Source: a virus (lineage: Duplodnaviria > Heunggongvirae > Uroviricota > Caudoviricetes). From it: a DNA stretch of 20,577 nucleotides. A program made the position numbers and the translations under genes. Location: the IMG/VR virus record IMGVR_UViG_2695420478_000010, one strand, 5' to 3'. Positions 225 through 8,380 of the stretch are shown piece after piece; the first letter of the stretch is position 1; each line of letters starts with the position of its first letter. The notes beneath the pieces are model-generated. The model did not search any database. It saw only the letters and a list, made by a program, of their open reading frames with translations, and was not told the DNA's origin.

Positions 225-635
225 TCAGAACGGAATATCATCACCGTAAGGGTCATCGCCTCCCGCTGGTGGCTGATTACCCTGTGCGCCTGTGGTTTTG
301 CGTCTGTTCCCGCCAGGACGTGCCGCACGGGCACTGATTACGCTGTCTGCAATAACCTGATAACCCTGACGCGTCTCCCCGTTCTGTCCGGTCCACTGGC
401 TGACCTGCATCGTGCCGGATACGCTGGCAACGTCGCCTTTTTGATGTTTAGCCAGGAAGTCGGCCTGCTTACCAAATGCGATGACCGATAGCCATAACGT
501 CGCCTGTCCGTCCTGTGCCTGACTGCATGGCAGTGATACCGCCATACGCGCCAGCGTCATCGGTGTACCCTTGCTGGTCTGTTTTACCTGCGGGTCGTCC
601 ACCAGCCGCCCGTAAGCTGCAATTTGTGCTGTCAT
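225..635 (-). CDS. ssb: Single-stranded DNA-binding protein (SSB) encoded by the element
   Basis: 136-aa ORF with GAGGTGG RBS; glycine-rich C-terminal region ending in the acidic tail DDIPF characteristic of bacterial and phage SSBs. Confidence 0.8.
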   Translation of the reverse strand: MTAQIAAYGRLVDDPQVKQTSKGTPMTLARMAVSLPCSQAQDGQATLWLSVIAFGKQADFLAKHQKGDVASVSGTMQVSQWTGQNGETRQGYQVIADSVISARAARPGGNRRKTTGAQGNQPPAGGDDPYGDDIPF

Positions 636-1570: not shown

Positions 1571-3703
1571 TTAATCTTCATCATCAGGCTGGAACATCAG
1601 CACGTAAAAAACATGCTGCTTACCCCCAATCTTGCCCAGCGCCTTTTTTTTGTATCGGCGATCGCTTCCCTTCTCCAGCATTCCGGCAGCATCCAGGGCA
1701 CGCGCAAAATGCGCCGGATTAAATCCCTTCGCTATCTCACTCTCAAACACGTGCGGGAACGTGTAATAGCGCATCTCGTCATCTTCGTTGCGAATGCTCC
1801 CTTTTCTGTATCCGGCAAGCTCTTTAATCGGTAAATCACGCTCATCTGTATTGGGGTACGGAAGGTAGCGGCTAAACCCAAACGACGACAAAAACGCCTC
1901 AGCCTGTTCAACCATCTGTTTAAATTCCCTGTTACCCGTGCCGAACTCCTTCACCCAGGCATTAAAGTTATGCTGTATCGCGTCGCGGCATTCCTGCACG
2001 ACCCAGCCAGTTACATGACCGGAAAGCACAAGCGCGGCCTCCAGTATGGCGAAACGTTCACCCACGCGGTGGACCTGCTCGCCGTAACTCTCCGGTATCA
2101 GGTTGCGCCACCGTTCGCGGCATTCCCTTACCGTGTCCTTTGCCTCCTGCTGGTGGCCTGCCAGCCATTTAACCCACTCACGACCCGCCGCCCCGTGATT
2201 TGCTGTCCAGGCATCCTTTAACGCGTCAGCATGTTCCTTACCGTTGCTGTATTCGTGAAATTTCGTGGCTTTTTCCATCGGAACGTTAAGCAGTCGGACA
2301 AGCTGCCCCGCCTTAACTTTTATCCCCTCACTTTTGAGGAATGTCTCAACGTCCATTTCTCCGGTGCTGATTGCCACCGTTCGCCAGTGTTTGATCTCCC
2401 TGTTGCCGCCATCCTTCGCCCCCTGCAATTTCCCTGAACCGTTAAACAGCGTATAAGCAGACGTTGACACTTCCCGCGCATTTCCGGCCTGGCCTATCTC
2501 ATCCAGTGGTAAAAGCCCGTCATTATGGGCCTCGGCCTCATTGGCAATACCTAACGCCGTGCCGTACCAGGTCAGCCGCTGCGCGTCCGGCTCTCCCCAT
2601 AAACTTGATGCGATGTTCTGCGTGGTGGTCTTACCTGCCGATGACTGTTCGAAAAGATGCACCCCGAAGCCGTCAGCACCCACAAGGCCAATTAAAGGCG
2701 CTGCCAGTGACGTTGCCACACCCAGTATCATTGAGGCATTACCGCCAGCCAGCCGCGCCACGCTGTCGCGCCAGCCATCCGCCGTGCCCGCCACGGAATA
2801 ACCGTTAATCGCGGCGCTTTTTCCGGTAAACAGGATCGGTTTTTCAGATTCACCAATGATCGAACCGTCCGGCATGATGTACGCGCCAAAATGCCAGCCC
2901 GTTGTTGTGCTTAACTGCCATTCCTCATGGCTTCCGCTTAACTGCATCCAGTCCGCCAGGATTGCCCTGTATTTGCCGTTGGTTGTCACGTTCAGCCCGT
3001 GATCTTTAAGTAACCGCCAGCCGTCACGGTCGCCGATACCACCACACGGGATCGCCATTGTGATGACTTCATGGTTTGCGGTTTTTTTCCAGCGCATCAC
3101 GCGGTAATGCTCTTTACCGATCGTCCCCGTTCCCAGTAGTTCAAGCGGAGAACATAACCACGTCTCAGGCCGGATAATTTCGCCTGACTGCTTATCCACT
3201 TTGGGCGTTACCCAGAAAACACCATCGGCGCGACTTTCAACGCGTGGCTTTAATTCGTCATCGCTATGGCTTCCGGTATCTTTTTTCTTTACCGGAAACT
3301 CAATAACCAGACCATCAGAAAGATTCTGCCGCTCACGGGCCAGATATTCGCGCCAGTTCTCCACCTTCTGACCGTGCATACCCTCAGGATAAAAATTTGC
3401 ATCCTGTACACCAGCCGCCGCCAGCTTTTGACCAATCGCCTTGATCATTACTGGTGCAAGATGTCCGGCCCTGAATATGCGCACGGATTTTCTGCCTTCC
3501 GGCACAATTTGCAGCTTATCCAGTTCTGATAACTGCTGCTCCCCAAGCCACACAGGAGGCACATTATCGCCGGATGCGGGGCCGTCCTGCTCCTGCCACT
3601 GTTTTGCATGTGCCCACGCATCACTACCCGCGAAAATAATCACCTCTGTGTCTTTGTGTTTTATTCCGCGTGGCTGTTTTTTTACGTTCGGTGCCAGTTT
3701 CAT
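1571..3703 (-). CDS. P4-type primase/helicase (alpha-like replication protein, DUF927-type NTPase)
   Basis: 710-aa ORF with AGGGGT RBS; Walker A-like FEQSSAGKTTTQ and Walker B-like LLPLDEIG; start overlaps the upstream ORF stop (ATGA). Confidence 0.88.
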   Translation of the reverse strand: MKLAPNVKKQPRGIKHKDTEVIIFAGSDAWAHAKQWQEQDGPASGDNVPPVWLGEQQLSELDKLQIVPEGRKSVRIFRAGHLAPVMIKAIGQKLAAAGVQDANFYPEGMHGQKVENWREYLARERQNLSDGLVIEFPVKKKDTGSHSDDELKPRVESRADGVFWVTPKVDKQSGEIIRPETWLCSPLELLGTGTIGKEHYRVMRWKKTANHEVITMAIPCGGIGDRDGWRLLKDHGLNVTTNGKYRAILADWMQLSGSHEEWQLSTTTGWHFGAYIMPDGSIIGESEKPILFTGKSAAINGYSVAGTADGWRDSVARLAGGNASMILGVATSLAAPLIGLVGADGFGVHLFEQSSAGKTTTQNIASSLWGEPDAQRLTWYGTALGIANEAEAHNDGLLPLDEIGQAGNAREVSTSAYTLFNGSGKLQGAKDGGNREIKHWRTVAISTGEMDVETFLKSEGIKVKAGQLVRLLNVPMEKATKFHEYSNGKEHADALKDAWTANHGAAGREWVKWLAGHQQEAKDTVRECRERWRNLIPESYGEQVHRVGERFAILEAALVLSGHVTGWVVQECRDAIQHNFNAWVKEFGTGNREFKQMVEQAEAFLSSFGFSRYLPYPNTDERDLPIKELAGYRKGSIRNEDDEMRYYTFPHVFESEIAKGFNPAHFARALDAAGMLEKGSDRRYKKKALGKIGGKQHVFYVLMFQPDDED

Positions 3704-3999
3704 TTTTTACCCCTGAATACGTTAAGCATCTTTTTTATTTCCTGAATATTGGCGCGTGCTTTCTCCCTGCTGGTTGGTTTACTGCGGGGCGCTGCCTGTA
3801 CCAGAGAAAAATCACGCCGGAACTGATAAACAGGCATCACGCAATCATATTCGTAGCCTTCACGATGGTAGGTTACGCGCCGTTCCTCCACGCCCTTAAT
3901 CATTACCGTGCCGCCGTACTTATCGCGGTAAATATCCCCGCACATGAATTTAGTGCGAGTTTTGCCGCTGGCAGTTAAGCCAGAATATTTAAGTTTCAT
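3700..3999 (-). CDS. Hypothetical protein (99 aa), translationally coupled to the primase
   Basis: GGAGAA RBS; stop overlaps the primase ATG. No recognisable motifs. Confidence 0.55.
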   Translation of the reverse strand: MKLKYSGLTASGKTRTKFMCGDIYRDKYGGTVMIKGVEERRVTYHREGYEYDCVMPVYQFRRDFSLVQAAPRSKPTSREKARANIQEIKKMLNVFRGKK

Positions 4000-4613: not shown

Positions 4614-4937
4614 GGCACACCCCCTGACGAATACGGGCGGCAAATACAGCAACACAACCTGACGGGCAACGGCTACGCGCTTCGCGTTCCGTCCAGGCGG
4701 TTACGTGGATGATTTGAGATTCTCCGGCACTCAGTGCCAGAAAACGCCACACAAAGGCCGTTTGTGTGTGTACAAGGTGTGGTATATGATTTACAGCAAC
4801 CATAACGGCTCCTAGTTTACGTTGTTGGTTAGAAGCACTGCGAGTGGTAATGACACTTGCGGGGCTTTGCTTTTTTAAGTGCTCTTGTGTTAAGGTGACC
4901 ACCTAACAATAGAAAGGCTAATTCAATAGGTGACCAC

Positions 4938-5129
4938 TTGTCAACAATCAAACGCGATAAAAGCCCTAAAGGGGACGGGCAATCCCCACAATTCAGAATG
5001 CGAATTTCTCCAGAGCTAAAAGAGCAATTCGATAAAGAAGCACAGAGCGACGGCATAAGCCTAGCCAACTGGCTTAAAGAGTTGGGGCGTACTGAACTAA
5101 AGCGGCGCGGTATAGAACCCAAAGGATAA
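4938..5129 (+). CDS. Small ribbon-helix-helix-like protein, putative regulator (TTG start at 4938 or ATG at 4998)
   Basis: AGGTGA RBS 4 nt before the TTG; segment RMRISPELKEQFDKEAQSDGISLANWLKELGR fits an RHH (Arc/CopG-like) pattern; divergent from the primase operon. Confidence 0.4.
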   Translation: MSTIKRDKSPKGDGQSPQFRMRISPELKEQFDKEAQSDGISLANWLKELGRTELKRRGIEPKG

Positions 5130-5171
5130 AAACTATCAGCGCCGTGGTGTGAGGTATTACGGCGCATTGCT

Positions 5172-5360
5172 ATGCAGGACAACACAATGACCGATAAAGA
5201 ATTGACCAAAACATTATCACCGGCACGGAAAAGACGGCGCAGAAAGATAGAGCATGAATCAGAAAGATTCGCGCCATGTGCTTTTGCCCTTGAGCAATTC
5301 CTTAAAGAGTACAGGGAAAAGCGCTCATTGCAGGTATGGCAACGAACTGAACCAGACTGA
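5172..5360 (+). CDS. Possible small basic protein (62 aa), doubtful
   Basis: ORF following the RHH-like ORF; poor RBS; contains a KRRRRK basic patch. Confidence 0.25.
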   Translation: MQDNTMTDKELTKTLSPARKRRRRKIEHESERFAPCAFALEQFLKEYREKRSLQVWQRTEPD

Positions 5361-5424
5361 TAGCATTGCCCACCAGCCAACAACCTGGTATTCTGGATAT
5401 GCTCAAGTTTAGTGTTATGCCACT

Positions 5425-5453
5425 GGCGGCCCTCTGCGGTCGCCTTTGTTTTA
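5425..5453 (+). terminator. Candidate rho-independent terminator for the plus-strand small ORFs
   Basis: GGCGGCC / GGTCGCC stem (one G-U pair), 6-nt loop, then TTTGTTTTA. Confidence 0.35.
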
Positions 5454-5471
5454 TGTGTCATATGCCCCCCT

Positions 5472-5696
5472 TTACGCTGCCTTGCCTGAATTAATACGAT
5501 CCCGGCTTTTAACCCATTCCATAACCTCGGAAAGCAGCCAACCTACTGAACGACCACCCAGATTACGGCGTGACGGGAAATTCCCTTTTTTCTCCAGTTC
5601 GTAGCGTGTAGTGCGGCACACTCCTGTTAACTTACGGCATTCATCCTCACGGATTACGCGATCTGATAGTGATTGAAATTGTGTATTTTGATTCAT
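5472..5696 (-). CDS. alpA: AlpA-family phage transcriptional regulator / excisionase-like HTH protein
   Basis: 74-aa ORF; central region LTGVCRTTRYELEKKGNFP and C-terminal SVGWLLSEVMEWV match the AlpA/Vis (HTH_17) pattern. Confidence 0.7.
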   Translation of the reverse strand: MNQNTQFQSLSDRVIREDECRKLTGVCRTTRYELEKKGNFPSRRNLGGRSVGWLLSEVMEWVKSRDRINSGKAA

Positions 5697-5731
5697 AAAA
5701 AAACGTCCTCGAACGTTGCCGAACGAGGACG
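5697..5731 (-). terminator. Stem-loop plus T-run on the minus strand, directly abutting the alpA start codon
   Basis: CGTCCTCG (5704-5711) pairs with CGAGGACG (5724-5731), 12-nt loop, followed on the minus strand by TTTTTT and then the alpA ATG. Confidence 0.5.
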
Positions 5732-5787
5732 ATTCTAGGCGGTAGTAAAACGCCGTTTGTGTGATATCACACTACCAGCACGTGATA

Positions 5788-6561
5788 TCACTTTTTACGT
5801 TTTTGTTGAGATTCACGCCCCAAATACTTTTGCCATGTCTGCCAATGTGTTTTTGGAAATTCTATCCCTCTGGATGCAGCTATAGAATCAATTAAATCTG
5901 CTATTTTAGGTAATGATTCCGTGTCCAGGTCTACATCACCCATTTCTGGAATAAGTTTAATTAAAGAGTAAATAACCTCATTCCTTTTTGACGATGCTTT
6001 TGGGCTATCTTCTGTTATCTTCGGGAAGTCTCCCGTATTTTTTATATTATCTAAATCACTAGCCATCACACACAAATAGTTAACATCAAATTCATAACCA
6101 CCCTTACAAAAAACATACATGAGATTATCATCACCATACTTATTCGTAAGATGAGAACATTTTATATATTGTCTCATGCTAAATTCGACATCAGCAAAAA
6201 CATATGCCGGAGTATAATAAAACCCTGATAAGCTGCTAACATAATAACATTTGATAGAATTCCCTACAGGACCAATAATGGCACTATCTAAAAATTCAGT
6301 GTCACCAGTTAAACCAACTGTAAAATTACTTCCAAAAACAGCAGATTCATCATTGAAAGGATATTTTATTAATTCTTCCTCATTACAACCATTGATAAAA
6401 TGACATAATGAAAAATTGAATTTTTTAGCATCAATTTTTGGTATATATACAGAAATATTAAGAGCACCTATATATGCGTAATGATAAAGATCTTTTATTG
6501 CACAGCCTAACTTTTCTGCCGCTTCAGGTAACGGATAATAGAGTCTTTTAGGTAATTTCAT
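5788..6561 (-). CDS. Hypothetical protein (257 aa), AT-rich accessory gene translationally coupled to the integrase
   Basis: Long uninterrupted ORF in visibly AT-rich DNA; GAAGGTGG RBS inside the integrase 3' end; ATG overlaps the integrase TGA (ATGA). No motif I can recognise. Confidence 0.7.
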   Translation of the reverse strand: MKLPKRLYYPLPEAAEKLGCAIKDLYHYAYIGALNISVYIPKIDAKKFNFSLCHFINGCNEEELIKYPFNDESAVFGSNFTVGLTGDTEFLDSAIIGPVGNSIKCYYVSSLSGFYYTPAYVFADVEFSMRQYIKCSHLTNKYGDDNLMYVFCKGGYEFDVNYLCVMASDLDNIKNTGDFPKITEDSPKASSKRNEVIYSLIKLIPEMGDVDLDTESLPKIADLIDSIAASRGIEFPKTHWQTWQKYLGRESQQKRKK

Positions 6562-7778
6562 TTGGCCACCTTCAGCATAACAATATTTTCATGATTTCCA
6601 GCCAGCACATCGAGGCGCTCAACCCACAGATTCAGAGCGTCCCGCTTCGCCTGTAAATAGCGTGAATGGTTATAGGTTTTTTGCTGACCGGGCATCTGAT
6701 GCGCTGTGATGTGCTCCACGATATGCGGATCGACACCTAAATCGTTCAGCATCGTTGTAAACGTGTGGCGAAAGTCATGCAGTGACCAATGTTCCTGGTT
6801 AAGCCGCTTATGCGCATTTCGCCCATATTGCGCTACCGTGGTATCTTTTTTCAGTTCTCCGAGCAATAACCCTGTATGCCGGTTCTGATCCACCAGCTTC
6901 TGAATGAACGGCAAAATGCCATCGGGGATTGGCCTGAATATCGTTACCTTCGTTTTGCTGTGCTCTTTTGGCACTGTCCACAACATTTCTTTCAGATCCC
7001 ATTCTTTGATCTCTGAAAGTCTGACCTCTGCAGTTCTGCACCCGAACACAATCAGCAAGCGCATTAACGCGCTGTAGTAAGGCGCGAACACATCACCATC
7101 AATAGCGCGTAAAATTTCCTTTAATTCGCTGTTACTGTGCACCCTCTCGCGAATTTCTGCTCTCTTACCCACATCGCTGACGATCAAATCGTCCAGGGCA
7201 TTACTGAACGCGTAGCGTCTCCTGCGGCAGAACTTTAGCGCCTGTTTGCAGGTTTGCATGACGTGCCCCGCTGCTACTGGTGCTTTTTTTCGTACACGGT
7301 CAAAACATGCGATCCACTGCCTTGTGTCGCATTTATCAAGAGGAATTGCCCCTATATGGCAAATGATGTGCTTATCCATACGTTGCACCAGCTTTATGTA
7401 GTCTTTGCGGTTATCCTTCGCATATTCCTCCAGCCAGTAGTTAATCGCCTCCTTCACCGTAACGGGTTTTAGCGCTTCCTGTACTGTGGCGCACAACTCA
7501 TAACGGGGGTTTTTACCCTCAGCCAGCCATGCCCGGCACTGTGCGCGTTTTTCCCTTGCAGCTTTCAGCGACAATTCAGGGTAAGCCCCCAGCTTTAACC
7601 GCTCTGCGGCAACCTCACGGCCTCCCGTTCGGTACCGGAAATACCAGGTTAATTTTCCGCCTTTTGAGTGTTTAATCTCCAGCCCGCCCCCGTCGGAGTA
7701 AAAACGCTCTTTTTCTGCCTGGACAGCCGCCAATTTTTTTAATGTCGAATCGCTCAGTTTGTTTAGTGCTTTTCCCAC
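6558..7778 (-). CDS. int: Tyrosine site-specific integrase, P4-like family (GTG start)
   Basis: 406-aa ORF with AAGAGGA RBS; N-terminal arm-binding-type region (GGGLEIKHSKGGKLTWYFRYR); C-terminal catalytic region LHDFRHTF ... HSRY. Confidence 0.92.
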   Translation of the reverse strand: MGKALNKLSDSTLKKLAAVQAEKERFYSDGGGLEIKHSKGGKLTWYFRYRTGGREVAAERLKLGAYPELSLKAAREKRAQCRAWLAEGKNPRYELCATVQEALKPVTVKEAINYWLEEYAKDNRKDYIKLVQRMDKHIICHIGAIPLDKCDTRQWIACFDRVRKKAPVAAGHVMQTCKQALKFCRRRRYAFSNALDDLIVSDVGKRAEIRERVHSNSELKEILRAIDGDVFAPYYSALMRLLIVFGCRTAEVRLSEIKEWDLKEMLWTVPKEHSKTKVTIFRPIPDGILPFIQKLVDQNRHTGLLLGELKKDTTVAQYGRNAHKRLNQEHWSLHDFRHTFTTMLNDLGVDPHIVEHITAHQMPGQQKTYNHSRYLQAKRDALNLWVERLDVLAGNHENIVMLKVAK

Positions 7779-7966
7779 TATCAGATCCTCTTTTCAGTCC
7801 TCCAGCCCCAAAAAACTGACCACACAACTGACCACACATTTCGTTGAAGCTCTACGAACAACGACGAACAATAACAAACAAGAAAACGCAACATTCCATT
7901 TAATATCAAATATATATCCAAACAACTACGAACAACCCCGAACCACAAAAAACACTAAATGAGAAA
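7779..7966. repeat. Element end region with direct repeats, candidate integrase arm-type sites (attR side)
   Basis: Perfect tandem AACTGACCACAC x2 (7814-7837); CTACGAACAAC at 7852-7862 and 7926-7936; extra ACGAACA at 7864-7870. Confidence 0.45.
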
Positions 7967-8018
7967 ATACGGGTATTTCTCAGCCTTCACGCAGAAGGGC
8001 ACCCCGAGTCGTTTGGTT
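7967..8018 (-). ncRNA. Truncated thiM TPP riboswitch aptamer (promoter-proximal arm only), interrupted by the element
   Basis: Minus strand reads AACCAAACGACTCGGGGTGCCCTTCTGCGTGAAGGCTGAGAAATACCCGTAT, matching the E. coli thiM aptamer as I recall it; the expected continuation CACCTGATCTGGATAATGCCAGCG is replaced by element sequence. Confidence 0.8.
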
Positions 8019-8041
8019 GCGATGATAAATCGCAGAGGAGG

Positions 8042-8070
8042 ATGGTAATGTCCAGCGCACCCGTTGTAAA
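8042..8070 (-). promoter_or_regulatory. Candidate thiM promoter (-35 TTTACA, 17-bp spacer, -10 TACCAT)
   Basis: Hexamers read on the minus strand just upstream of the riboswitch fragment; assigned by eye only. Confidence 0.3.
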
Positions 8071-8107
8071 CGAGGAAAAACGGCAGTTTTACAATCGCGT
8101 TAATAAA

Positions 8108-8380
8108 TTATTTGATATATGAATCCAGCACCTTCAGAACGACATCCAGATCTTCTTCACGTTTTAGCTCATCCCCCTGGTGAACGATGTGTTCCGTCAG
8201 ATGACCTTTAATCACTTCCCGCATCAGACCGTTTACCGCGCCACGGATAGCAGCAATCTGTTGTAAAACTGCAGCGCATTCGTGCGGCTCGTCGAGCATT
8301 TTCTTGAGCGCCACGACCTGGCCCTGAATCTTACTGGCACGCGCTTTCAGTTTCTGTTTATCACGGATTGTATGAGACAT
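8108..8380 (-). CDS. rcnR: RcnR, Ni/Co-responsive transcriptional repressor (CsoR/RcnR family)
   Basis: 90-aa ORF whose sequence I recognise as E. coli RcnR; divergent from rcnA. Confidence 0.92.

Follow-up and report, generated by a model that had tools for sequence, protein, structure and literature searches.

The first 7966 nucleotides of the window, as we call the whole 20,577-nt stretch of DNA analysed here, are very probably the left 8 kb of a capsid-forming phage-inducible chromosomal island (cf-PICI) of ~15.9 kb that sits inside the thiM thiamine pyrophosphate (TPP) riboswitch aptamer via a 14-bp core. The family is known and the site has been listed before, and the present analysis is a re-reading of it, not the description of a new system. 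The new points are that the "intergenic" site of the listing forms the core of the thiM TPP aptamer, that the riboswitch is destroyed there and left unreplaced, and that diverged integrases of Salmonella use the same sequence.

Attachment junction in the thiM leader

On the minus strand, rcnR (8380..8108), the Ni/Co repressor gene of the host upstream of the thiM leader, which was recognized from the list of open reading frames (ORFs) and the rcnR annotation of syntenic genomes, is followed by a 90-nt spacer, half an aptamer, AT-rich DNA, and then a GTG at 7778 that opens a 406-codon ORF. The half aptamer, AACCAAACGACTCGGGGTGCCCTTCTGCGTGAAGGCTGAGAAATACCCGTAT at 8018..7967 on the minus strand, was identical in the alignment to the 5' half of the K-12 thiM TPP riboswitch at all 52 positions, and the first-pass annotation, which had assigned this segment to the 5' part of the thiM riboswitch, was exact in its coordinates. 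As judged from the K-12 identity and the partial Rfam match, the segment consists of the P1 5' strand, P2, P3, the CUGAGA junction, and the P2 3' strand. The same 52 nt also matched with 100% identity in the thiM leaders of thousands of E. coli genomes (E = 2e-17 against 28 Gb), in which RefSeq labels the matched leader "riboswitch". From the rcnR end to ...CTGAGAAATACCCGTAT, the minus strand differed from K-12 MG1655 by one mismatch in ~150 nt. The identity stopped after ...AGAAATACCCGTAT at 7967, and nothing was in common from 7966 on, so that the abrupt switch to element DNA within the aptamer that had been proposed earlier could be placed at the base, with 7967 as the last matching position. 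The sequence AGAAATACCCGTAT at 7980..7967 (minus strand) is the attL copy of the att core, which is repeated at both ends of the element, and since these 14 bp are common to the host site and the element, the crossover lies somewhere within 7980..7967.

The window ends inside the element, and the far end was read in PKF11, MB41-1, UMNF18, and Ecol_224 as well as in the drafts L011-L013, L015, and L016. The far end of these relatives was ...AATTAGTAAGAAATACCCGTAT joined to the aptamer's 3' half (CACCTGATCTGGATAATGCCAGCGTAGGGAAGTCACGG...), and was followed by the expression platform, thiM, and thiD. The prediction that the rest of the aptamer, the expression platform, and thiM lie beyond the far end was thus borne out in elements 98-99.6% identical to that of the window, including L012 and L016, which contain the window's own architecture of rcnR, half aptamer, and int together with both junctions. 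The suggested search for a direct repeat of the core also succeeded in the relatives of the window's element, as the same 14 bp AGAAATACCCGTAT were present at both element ends in L001, L010, L012, L013, L016, and L024 and only once in the empty site. Uninterrupted rcnR-thiM intervals, which the first-pass annotation had proposed to look for, were found in ~98.6% of the complete E. coli genomes (~5350 of 5426), while attL was present in 76 and attR in 75 of these 5426 genomes (~1.4%). In the relatives, the direct repeat of the core and the existence of empty sites are those of a site-specific element.

The P4-family integrase is read as having recombined AGAAATACCCGTAT, the core of attP, with the same 14 bp of the thiM leader. 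In the genome from which the window derives, the far end, ~8.1 kb past position 1, would read ...AATTAGTAAGAAATACCCGTATCACCTGATCTGG..., followed by thiM and thiD, and attP would read AGTAAGAAATACCCGTATTTTCT after excision. The core region of attP, AAGAAAT-ACCCGTA-TTTTCTC, is an imperfect inverted repeat with a 7-bp centre, and this arrangement suggests that strand exchange takes place within about ACCCGTA. The core was polymorphic at one base, GAAAT[A/G]CCCGTAT (window position 7975, minus strand). L011 carried G at attL (5534) and A at attR (21613), L015 carried G at both ends (4525/21611), and the window element and L012 carried A at both. This polymorphism could help to locate the crossover point.

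The DNA between the core and int (7966..7779, minus strand) forms the P' arm, which contained three TTGTTCGT motifs at 7935..7928, 7871..7864, and 7861..7854 on the minus strand. A block of 70 bp in this arm (7881..7812, minus strand), which was the longest common substring of the two arms, had an identical copy at the other element end, where it lies 63 bp upstream of the core. Inside the block, comparison of the arms showed a doubled motif, with two copies of GTGTGGTCAGTT at 7837..7814 (minus strand). The distances of these copies from the core, +129 and +141, were the same in E. coli and at both Salmonella loci, although the intervening sequence had diverged, and in L005 both copies carried the same change, GTGAGGTCAGTT. 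The 70-bp blocks with the doubled GTGTGGTCAGTT are probably arm-type binding sites for Int or AlpA. At the other junction, RefSeq contains a hypothetical protein of 89 aa that runs antisense across attR in L001 (31853-32122, minus strand) and L010 (35163-35432, minus strand). Its ORF begins in the thiM leader and extends into the element, and this call is probably spurious and made by the junction.

Gene content, relatives, and mobility of the element

The gene next to the half aptamer, int (7778..6558, minus strand), encodes a P4-family tyrosine integrase of 406 aa with a GTG start preceded by AAGAGGA. Both domains, Arm-DNA-bind_3 (PF13356, 2e-18) and Phage_integrase (PF00589, 8e-17), were found by Pfam, the protein matched the PHROG 1 integrase (1e-66), and CRTAE, HDFRHT, and YNHSRY in its translation were taken by eye as the catalytic boxes. 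Further along the minus strand, the ORF list and the Pfam matches gave an ORF of 257 aa that overlaps the stop codon of int (6561..5788), alpA of the excisionase/regulator family (5696..5472; Phage_AlpA, 3e-16), an ORF of 210 aa (5461..4829), a DUF4222 ORF (3999..3700), and the primase/replication protein of 710 aa (3703..1571; DUF927, 1e-48), the exact sequence of which occurred in 583 blocks of the assembly collection. Several small ORFs are also on the minus strand downstream of int. The gene tables of L002, L012, and L016 identified the SSB of the element at 635..225 (minus strand), and the stretch equivalent to the 210-aa ORF is annotated in the MB41-1 element as a fragment of an Icd-like cell-division inhibitor. 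Neither the 257-aa nor the 210-aa ORF had a match in Pfam, PADLOC, or PHROG. The slot directly after int was occupied by a 239-aa ORF in PKF11 and UMNF18 and by a 284-aa DUF6387 protein in EcCI224, and the slot of the 257-aa ORF therefore appears to behave as a variable cargo position.

In near-identical relatives, the element runs on past position 1 of the window, with a perC-family gene from ~214 and then the capsid and packaging module. In these relatives, SSB and PerC were followed by the major capsid protein, prohead protease, portal, head closure protein, connector, HNH, TerS, and TerL, and the gene tables of the complete relatives contained no tail or lysis genes. This capsid module was found only outside the window, in the elements of L002, L012, and L016, which are 98.2-99.6% identical to the window. 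Gram-negative PICIs are defined by int, alpA, and pri-rep genes transcribed in one direction, a size of 10-15 kb, and an att site of their own (Fillol-Salom et al. 2018). In agreement with this, int, alpA, and the primase of the window are on the same (minus) strand, the full relatives are ~15.9 kb long, and the att site is listed for the PICI EcCI224. Taken with the capsid and packaging layout of the complete relatives, the window is best read as holding the left half of a cf-PICI.

Near-identical elements were found in three O157 genomes, with the MB41-1 element ~99.6-99.9% identical and the 10671 and Al Ain elements 99.6% identical to that of the window. Over 13.7 kb, the identity to the window was 99.0% for L012 and 98.2% for L016. 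No genome in the databases was an exact match to the window, and L015 and L012 came nearest. The genome with the host flank closest to that of the window was L015 (CP146555.1), with 99.98% identity in the flank and 99.6% in the element, and in this genome an IS encoding a DDE_Tnp_1 transposase of 326 aa was inserted between the half aptamer and int (4889-5869).

Several further observations were made in the relatives. In L002, four copies of a 54-bp repeat (24391-24702), 61-80% identical to the reference copy and each with a small palindrome, were located in the non-coding right arm of 1 kb that separates the packaging module from attR, and may be a packaging or replication site. The PKF11 element (L001), which occupies the same att site, contained a C4 antisense RNA (RF01695, 68.5 bits) at 23794-23998, with an a1/b1 target of this RNA just under the gathering score (42.0 versus 46.7 bits). 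L014 (GCA_011828255.1) carried pntA-pntB, a different integrase of 409 aa, and an AlpA of 62 aa at its left end (6236-7465), was 99.5% identical to the window's element from ~9057 on, and had the thiM-type attR core and thiM at its right end (21613-22133). Either two cf-PICIs, each at its own att site, have recombined here, or the contig is a chimera of the assembly.

We considered whether the element could be an immobile remnant fixed at this locus, with the junction being a historical scar and not an active attachment site. No excised attP junction was present in IMG/VR or in JGI metagenome contigs, and excision is thus deduced from comparative data. In addition, the UMNF18 copy has frameshifts in HNH and TerS, and the IS of L015 lies beside int. 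Against such a remnant, the junctions were precise and the cores identical in 75-76 genomes of varied hosts, and 13 distinct attL variants occurred in at least three host contexts, including seven IMG/VR proviruses. The 99.6%-identical element was found behind K-12-like flanks (the window and L012) as well as behind an O157-specific island (MB41-1), which argues for independent site-specific insertions. The int gene, alpA, and the packaging module were intact in L012, L016, and L002. Diverged integrases also occupied the site in Salmonella enterica, where two integrases 76% and 71% identical to that of the window lie at the same position of the thiM aptamer (...GGCTGAGAAATACCCGTAT followed by TTTCTAA...). 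Integrase relatives at 68% identity occupied other loci, and together these data point to an integrase lineage dedicated to the aptamer sequence in two genera. On this evidence, an inactive scar is highly improbable. Neither the attL junction nor relatives of the integrase were found among the GTDB species-representative genomes.

The DNA upstream of the aptamer was itself variable. In the O157 genomes (L002, 6677-8960; also L011 and L013), an island of 2.3 kb with OMP-like, hypothetical, and HTH-like genes replaced the native rcnR-thiM promoter region and ended exactly at the 5' end of the aptamer (...tatagagattc joined to AACCAAACGACTC). E. coli B also has an island beside thiM (PMC5487053). 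In L023 (IMG/VR UViG 2529293239_000005), the same attL junction was found at ~6260 in a third host context, with TTTTGTTTTAAATGACTC before GGGGTGCC, suggesting a further host lineage or species in which the DNA upstream of thiM differs. The region upstream of thiM appears to be a hotspot for variable DNA.

Fate of the riboswitch and transcription across the junctions

A complete TPP aptamer consists of P1, the P2/P3 arm, and the P4/P5 arm, and the Rfam TPP family (RF00059) has a gathering score of 54.3 bits. The intact K-12 thiM leader scored 71.2 bits against this family, whereas the window scored 22.9 bits at 7911..8016, all of which came from the half with the P1 5' strand, P2, and P3; the aptamer in the window is therefore incomplete. 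No match at any gathering score was obtained when the window was searched against Rfam. Read as RNA, the core comprises the end of the CUGAGA junction, the P2 3' strand, and the start of the P2-P4 junction. Integration thereby parts the P2/P3 arm, which senses the pyrimidine, from the P4/P5 arm, which senses the pyrophosphate. On the rcnR side, the promoter region, the P1 5' strand, and P2/P3 remain and are fused to 188 bp of arm DNA and int, while P4/P5 and the P1 3' strand remain on the thiM side, ~16 kb away, together with the expression platform, thiM, and thiD. Precise excision would restore the riboswitch.

A riboswitch that still works in carriers would require the element to bring a 5' half of its own as a substitute to the thiM end, in the way that islands targeting tRNA genes do for their targets. 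The duplication of the 14-bp core, the similarity of the triplet before it (CTG in the host and GTA in the element), and a weak full-length Rfam match that persists at attR are in line with such a substitute. This match, however, amounted to 36.2 bits in the relatives, short of the gathering score (54.3 bits), and no pairing remained in its P2/P3 columns. In place of the aptamer's UGAGA, a highly conserved stretch of the Rfam TPP consensus, the element has UAAGA, and the thiM end of the relatives' elements contained neither a GGGGU partner for ACCC nor a P1 5' strand. The RefSeq "riboswitch" feature was present at empty sites and absent at occupied ones. A substitute half is therefore scarcely credible, and an aptamer rebuilt from element DNA was rejected on the attR score and the absence of P2/P3. 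By these sequence measures the integrated element does not rebuild the riboswitch, and since it brings no replacement half, the riboswitch is destroyed for as long as the element is resident.

The partial Rfam alignment and the attL fold also gave rise to the idea that element DNA mimics the P1 3' strand and pairs with the P1 5' strand kept at attL. The duplex energies compared with those of shuffled arms gave inconsistent results over the 13 attL variants (p = 0.03-0.6), the z-score of the attL fold was -1.37, and the mimic was rejected as chance.

On the rcnR side, a promoter-like site, TTTACA-17-TACCAT, was found at 8070..8042 (minus strand) by consensus match and PWM. It was the only sigma-70-like site in 7650..8200, an interval in which 0.8 such sites are expected by chance, and no other site scored higher by PWM in either the K-12 or the window interval. 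Because the riboswitch is in the 5' UTR, the thiM promoter must stay on the rcnR side, and this site, a match to the consensus, is the candidate for that promoter. The int gene starts 264-292 nt downstream of it. The earlier claim that the integrase, with its GTG at 7778, has the same orientation as the thiM promoter agrees with this arrangement, as int is co-oriented with the one promoter-like site found ahead of the aptamer. Between this site and int, no terminator-like site was predicted, and transcripts from the thiM promoter could thus run into int. From the structure of the thiM aptamer, the P2/P3 arm alone should not bind TPP, and no response of the attL transcripts to thiamine is therefore expected.

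Such read-through might be functional, with the host promoter driving int and the genes downstream and coupling the element to its host in the manner of helper-embedded PICIs. The co-orientation of int, its distance of 264-292 nt, and the lack of a predicted terminator in between fit this possibility, as do the transcription of Gram-negative PICIs in one direction starting from int (PMC6092414) and the use of upstream host or helper transcription by helper-embedded PICIs (PMC10111431). However, the P' arm contains weak promoter-like sites (TTGTTC-15-TATATT at 7935), and int may have a promoter of its own; the O157 carriers keep the element although an unrelated island replaces the native promoter region; and Int without AlpA should not excise. 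We therefore consider functional coupling to the thiM promoter rather unlikely.

On the thiM side, thiM was intact in all four carriers that were fully inspected, and so was thiD, with the inspection of MB41-1 covering thiM only. A strong outward promoter at the thiM end was rejected, as scans of the last 600-1400 bp of the element with the consensus and the PWM gave no convincing outward promoter and weak candidates only. The sole outward candidate conserved across elements, TTGTGT-16-TTTAAT, overlaps the doubled motif. In carriers, thiMD would lose its native promoter and would rely on transcription that starts weakly in the element or reads through from it. The predicted attR fold keeps the ON-type hairpin GGGAAG:CUUCUUC (anti-Shine-Dalgarno), as the wild type does. 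When 100 nt or less of element sequence was included upstream, the predicted accessibility of the Shine-Dalgarno sequence in the attR leader was 0.51-0.56, compared with 0.54 for the ligand-free wild type, and it dropped to 0.35 when 200 nt were included. From these models, the leader of the thiMD mRNA in carriers would be blind to the ligand and take up the fold of the ligand-free ON state, and the translation of thiM should be constitutively permitted if the mRNA is made.

Combining both sides, carriage of the satellite may act as a reversible switch on thiamine metabolism, in which, during residence, thiM-thiD escape TPP feedback because of the split aptamer and a leader locked in the ON fold, the native promoter is lost to them, and this promoter with its dead half aptamer feeds transcription into int, whereas precise excision rebuilds the riboswitch. 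We put this forward tentatively, as a possibility with somewhat less than an even chance of being right. If it holds, this would be the first natural riboswitch-aptamer attachment site with a regulatory consequence described within the literature searched, and ~1.4% of E. coli strains would be affected, for example by altered thiamine prototrophy or pyrithiamine sensitivity.

Significance and relation to known systems

Integrative elements usually insert at tRNA or tmRNA genes, into protein-coding genes, or into plain intergenic DNA, and in most cases the elements restore what they interrupt. Here, the aptamer of a model riboswitch that has been studied well, E. coli thiM, is cut between its two ligand-binding arms and is left unrepaired, which means that about 1 in 70 complete E. 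coli genomes is without a functional thiM riboswitch. Genome annotation silently loses the riboswitch feature at these sites, and surveys will score the thiM riboswitch as absent in carriers. The regulation of the thiamine pathway may differ in carriers, in which thiD, required for the de novo synthesis of thiamine, is left without its native promoter. As the use of the same core in Salmonella shows, a conserved aptamer sequence can offer a satellite a target that exists in more than one genus.

The site had already been recorded for the PICI EcCI224 of Ecol_224 (CP018948.1:1961620-1972242, 10.6 kb), which is listed with the att sequence AGAAATACCCGTAT and the location "frmR-thiM" (PMC6092414, Fillol-Salom et al. 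2018, ISME J, Table S1). The core of Ecol_224 mapped to exactly 1961620, with the same int beside rcnR and thiM at the far end. EcCI224 shares with the window the site and the listed core; the nucleotide sequences are 97% identical across the rcnR-int junction, and EcCI224 likewise has alpA, DUF4222, a primase, and an Icd-like gene. It differs from the window in that its primase is a different one and a DUF6387 gene follows int, and from the relatives of the window in that it carries a protease-capsid fusion gene in place of the full capsid, portal, and terminase module. The text and supplements of PMC6092414 do not contain the word "riboswitch" and describe the site as intergenic. The first-pass annotation had called a riboswitch leader an unusual attachment site; this stands insofar as the riboswitch went unmentioned in the 2018 listing, and has to be qualified because the core and the location were already listed for EcCI224. 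The literature search returned no account of a riboswitch as the attachment site of a PICI, prophage, or island, nor of a link between thiM and an integrase, other than the EcCI224 line.

The prototype cf-PICI, EcCIEDL933 (Sakai Sp7), matched 64% of the element DNA in the window with 98.9% nucleotide identity, corresponding to the regulation and replication module. Like the full relatives of the window, it has the cf-PICI layout with its own capsid, protease, portal, connectors, HNH, TerS, and TerL. Unlike the window, it has another integration module and another chromosomal site, and the match begins after int and the 257-aa ORF. Six attB sites, four of them in common with classical PICIs, are given for the cf-PICIs of E. 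coli by Alqurainy et al. 2023 (bioRxiv 10.1101/2022.09.08.507074).

The integrase of the window resembles the P4-family integrases that act at genes for structured RNAs, with which it shares the combination of Arm-DNA-bind_3 and Phage_integrase, and it was ~55% identical to proteins named "Prophage CP4-57 integrase". The CP4-57 integrase at ssrA and the islands that target tRNA genes likewise use a short, highly conserved target that encodes a structured RNA. Elements that target tRNA genes or ssrA carry a copy of the displaced gene end, and the RNA gene stays intact. The window element, in contrast, leaves the displaced half unreplaced, and the RNA element is destroyed. The helper-embedded PICIs and the elements of "regulated gene integrity" also interrupt a functional unit of the host or helper (Mageeney et al. 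2020, 2023; PMC7192596, PMC10111431). As in the window, int of the helper-embedded PICIs has the orientation of the unit that is interrupted, and a doubled motif is found at a fixed spacing on the flanks of the attP core (PMC10111431). The helper-embedded PICIs interrupt protein-coding genes, whereas the element in the window interrupts a cis-regulatory RNA and leaves the coding genes intact.
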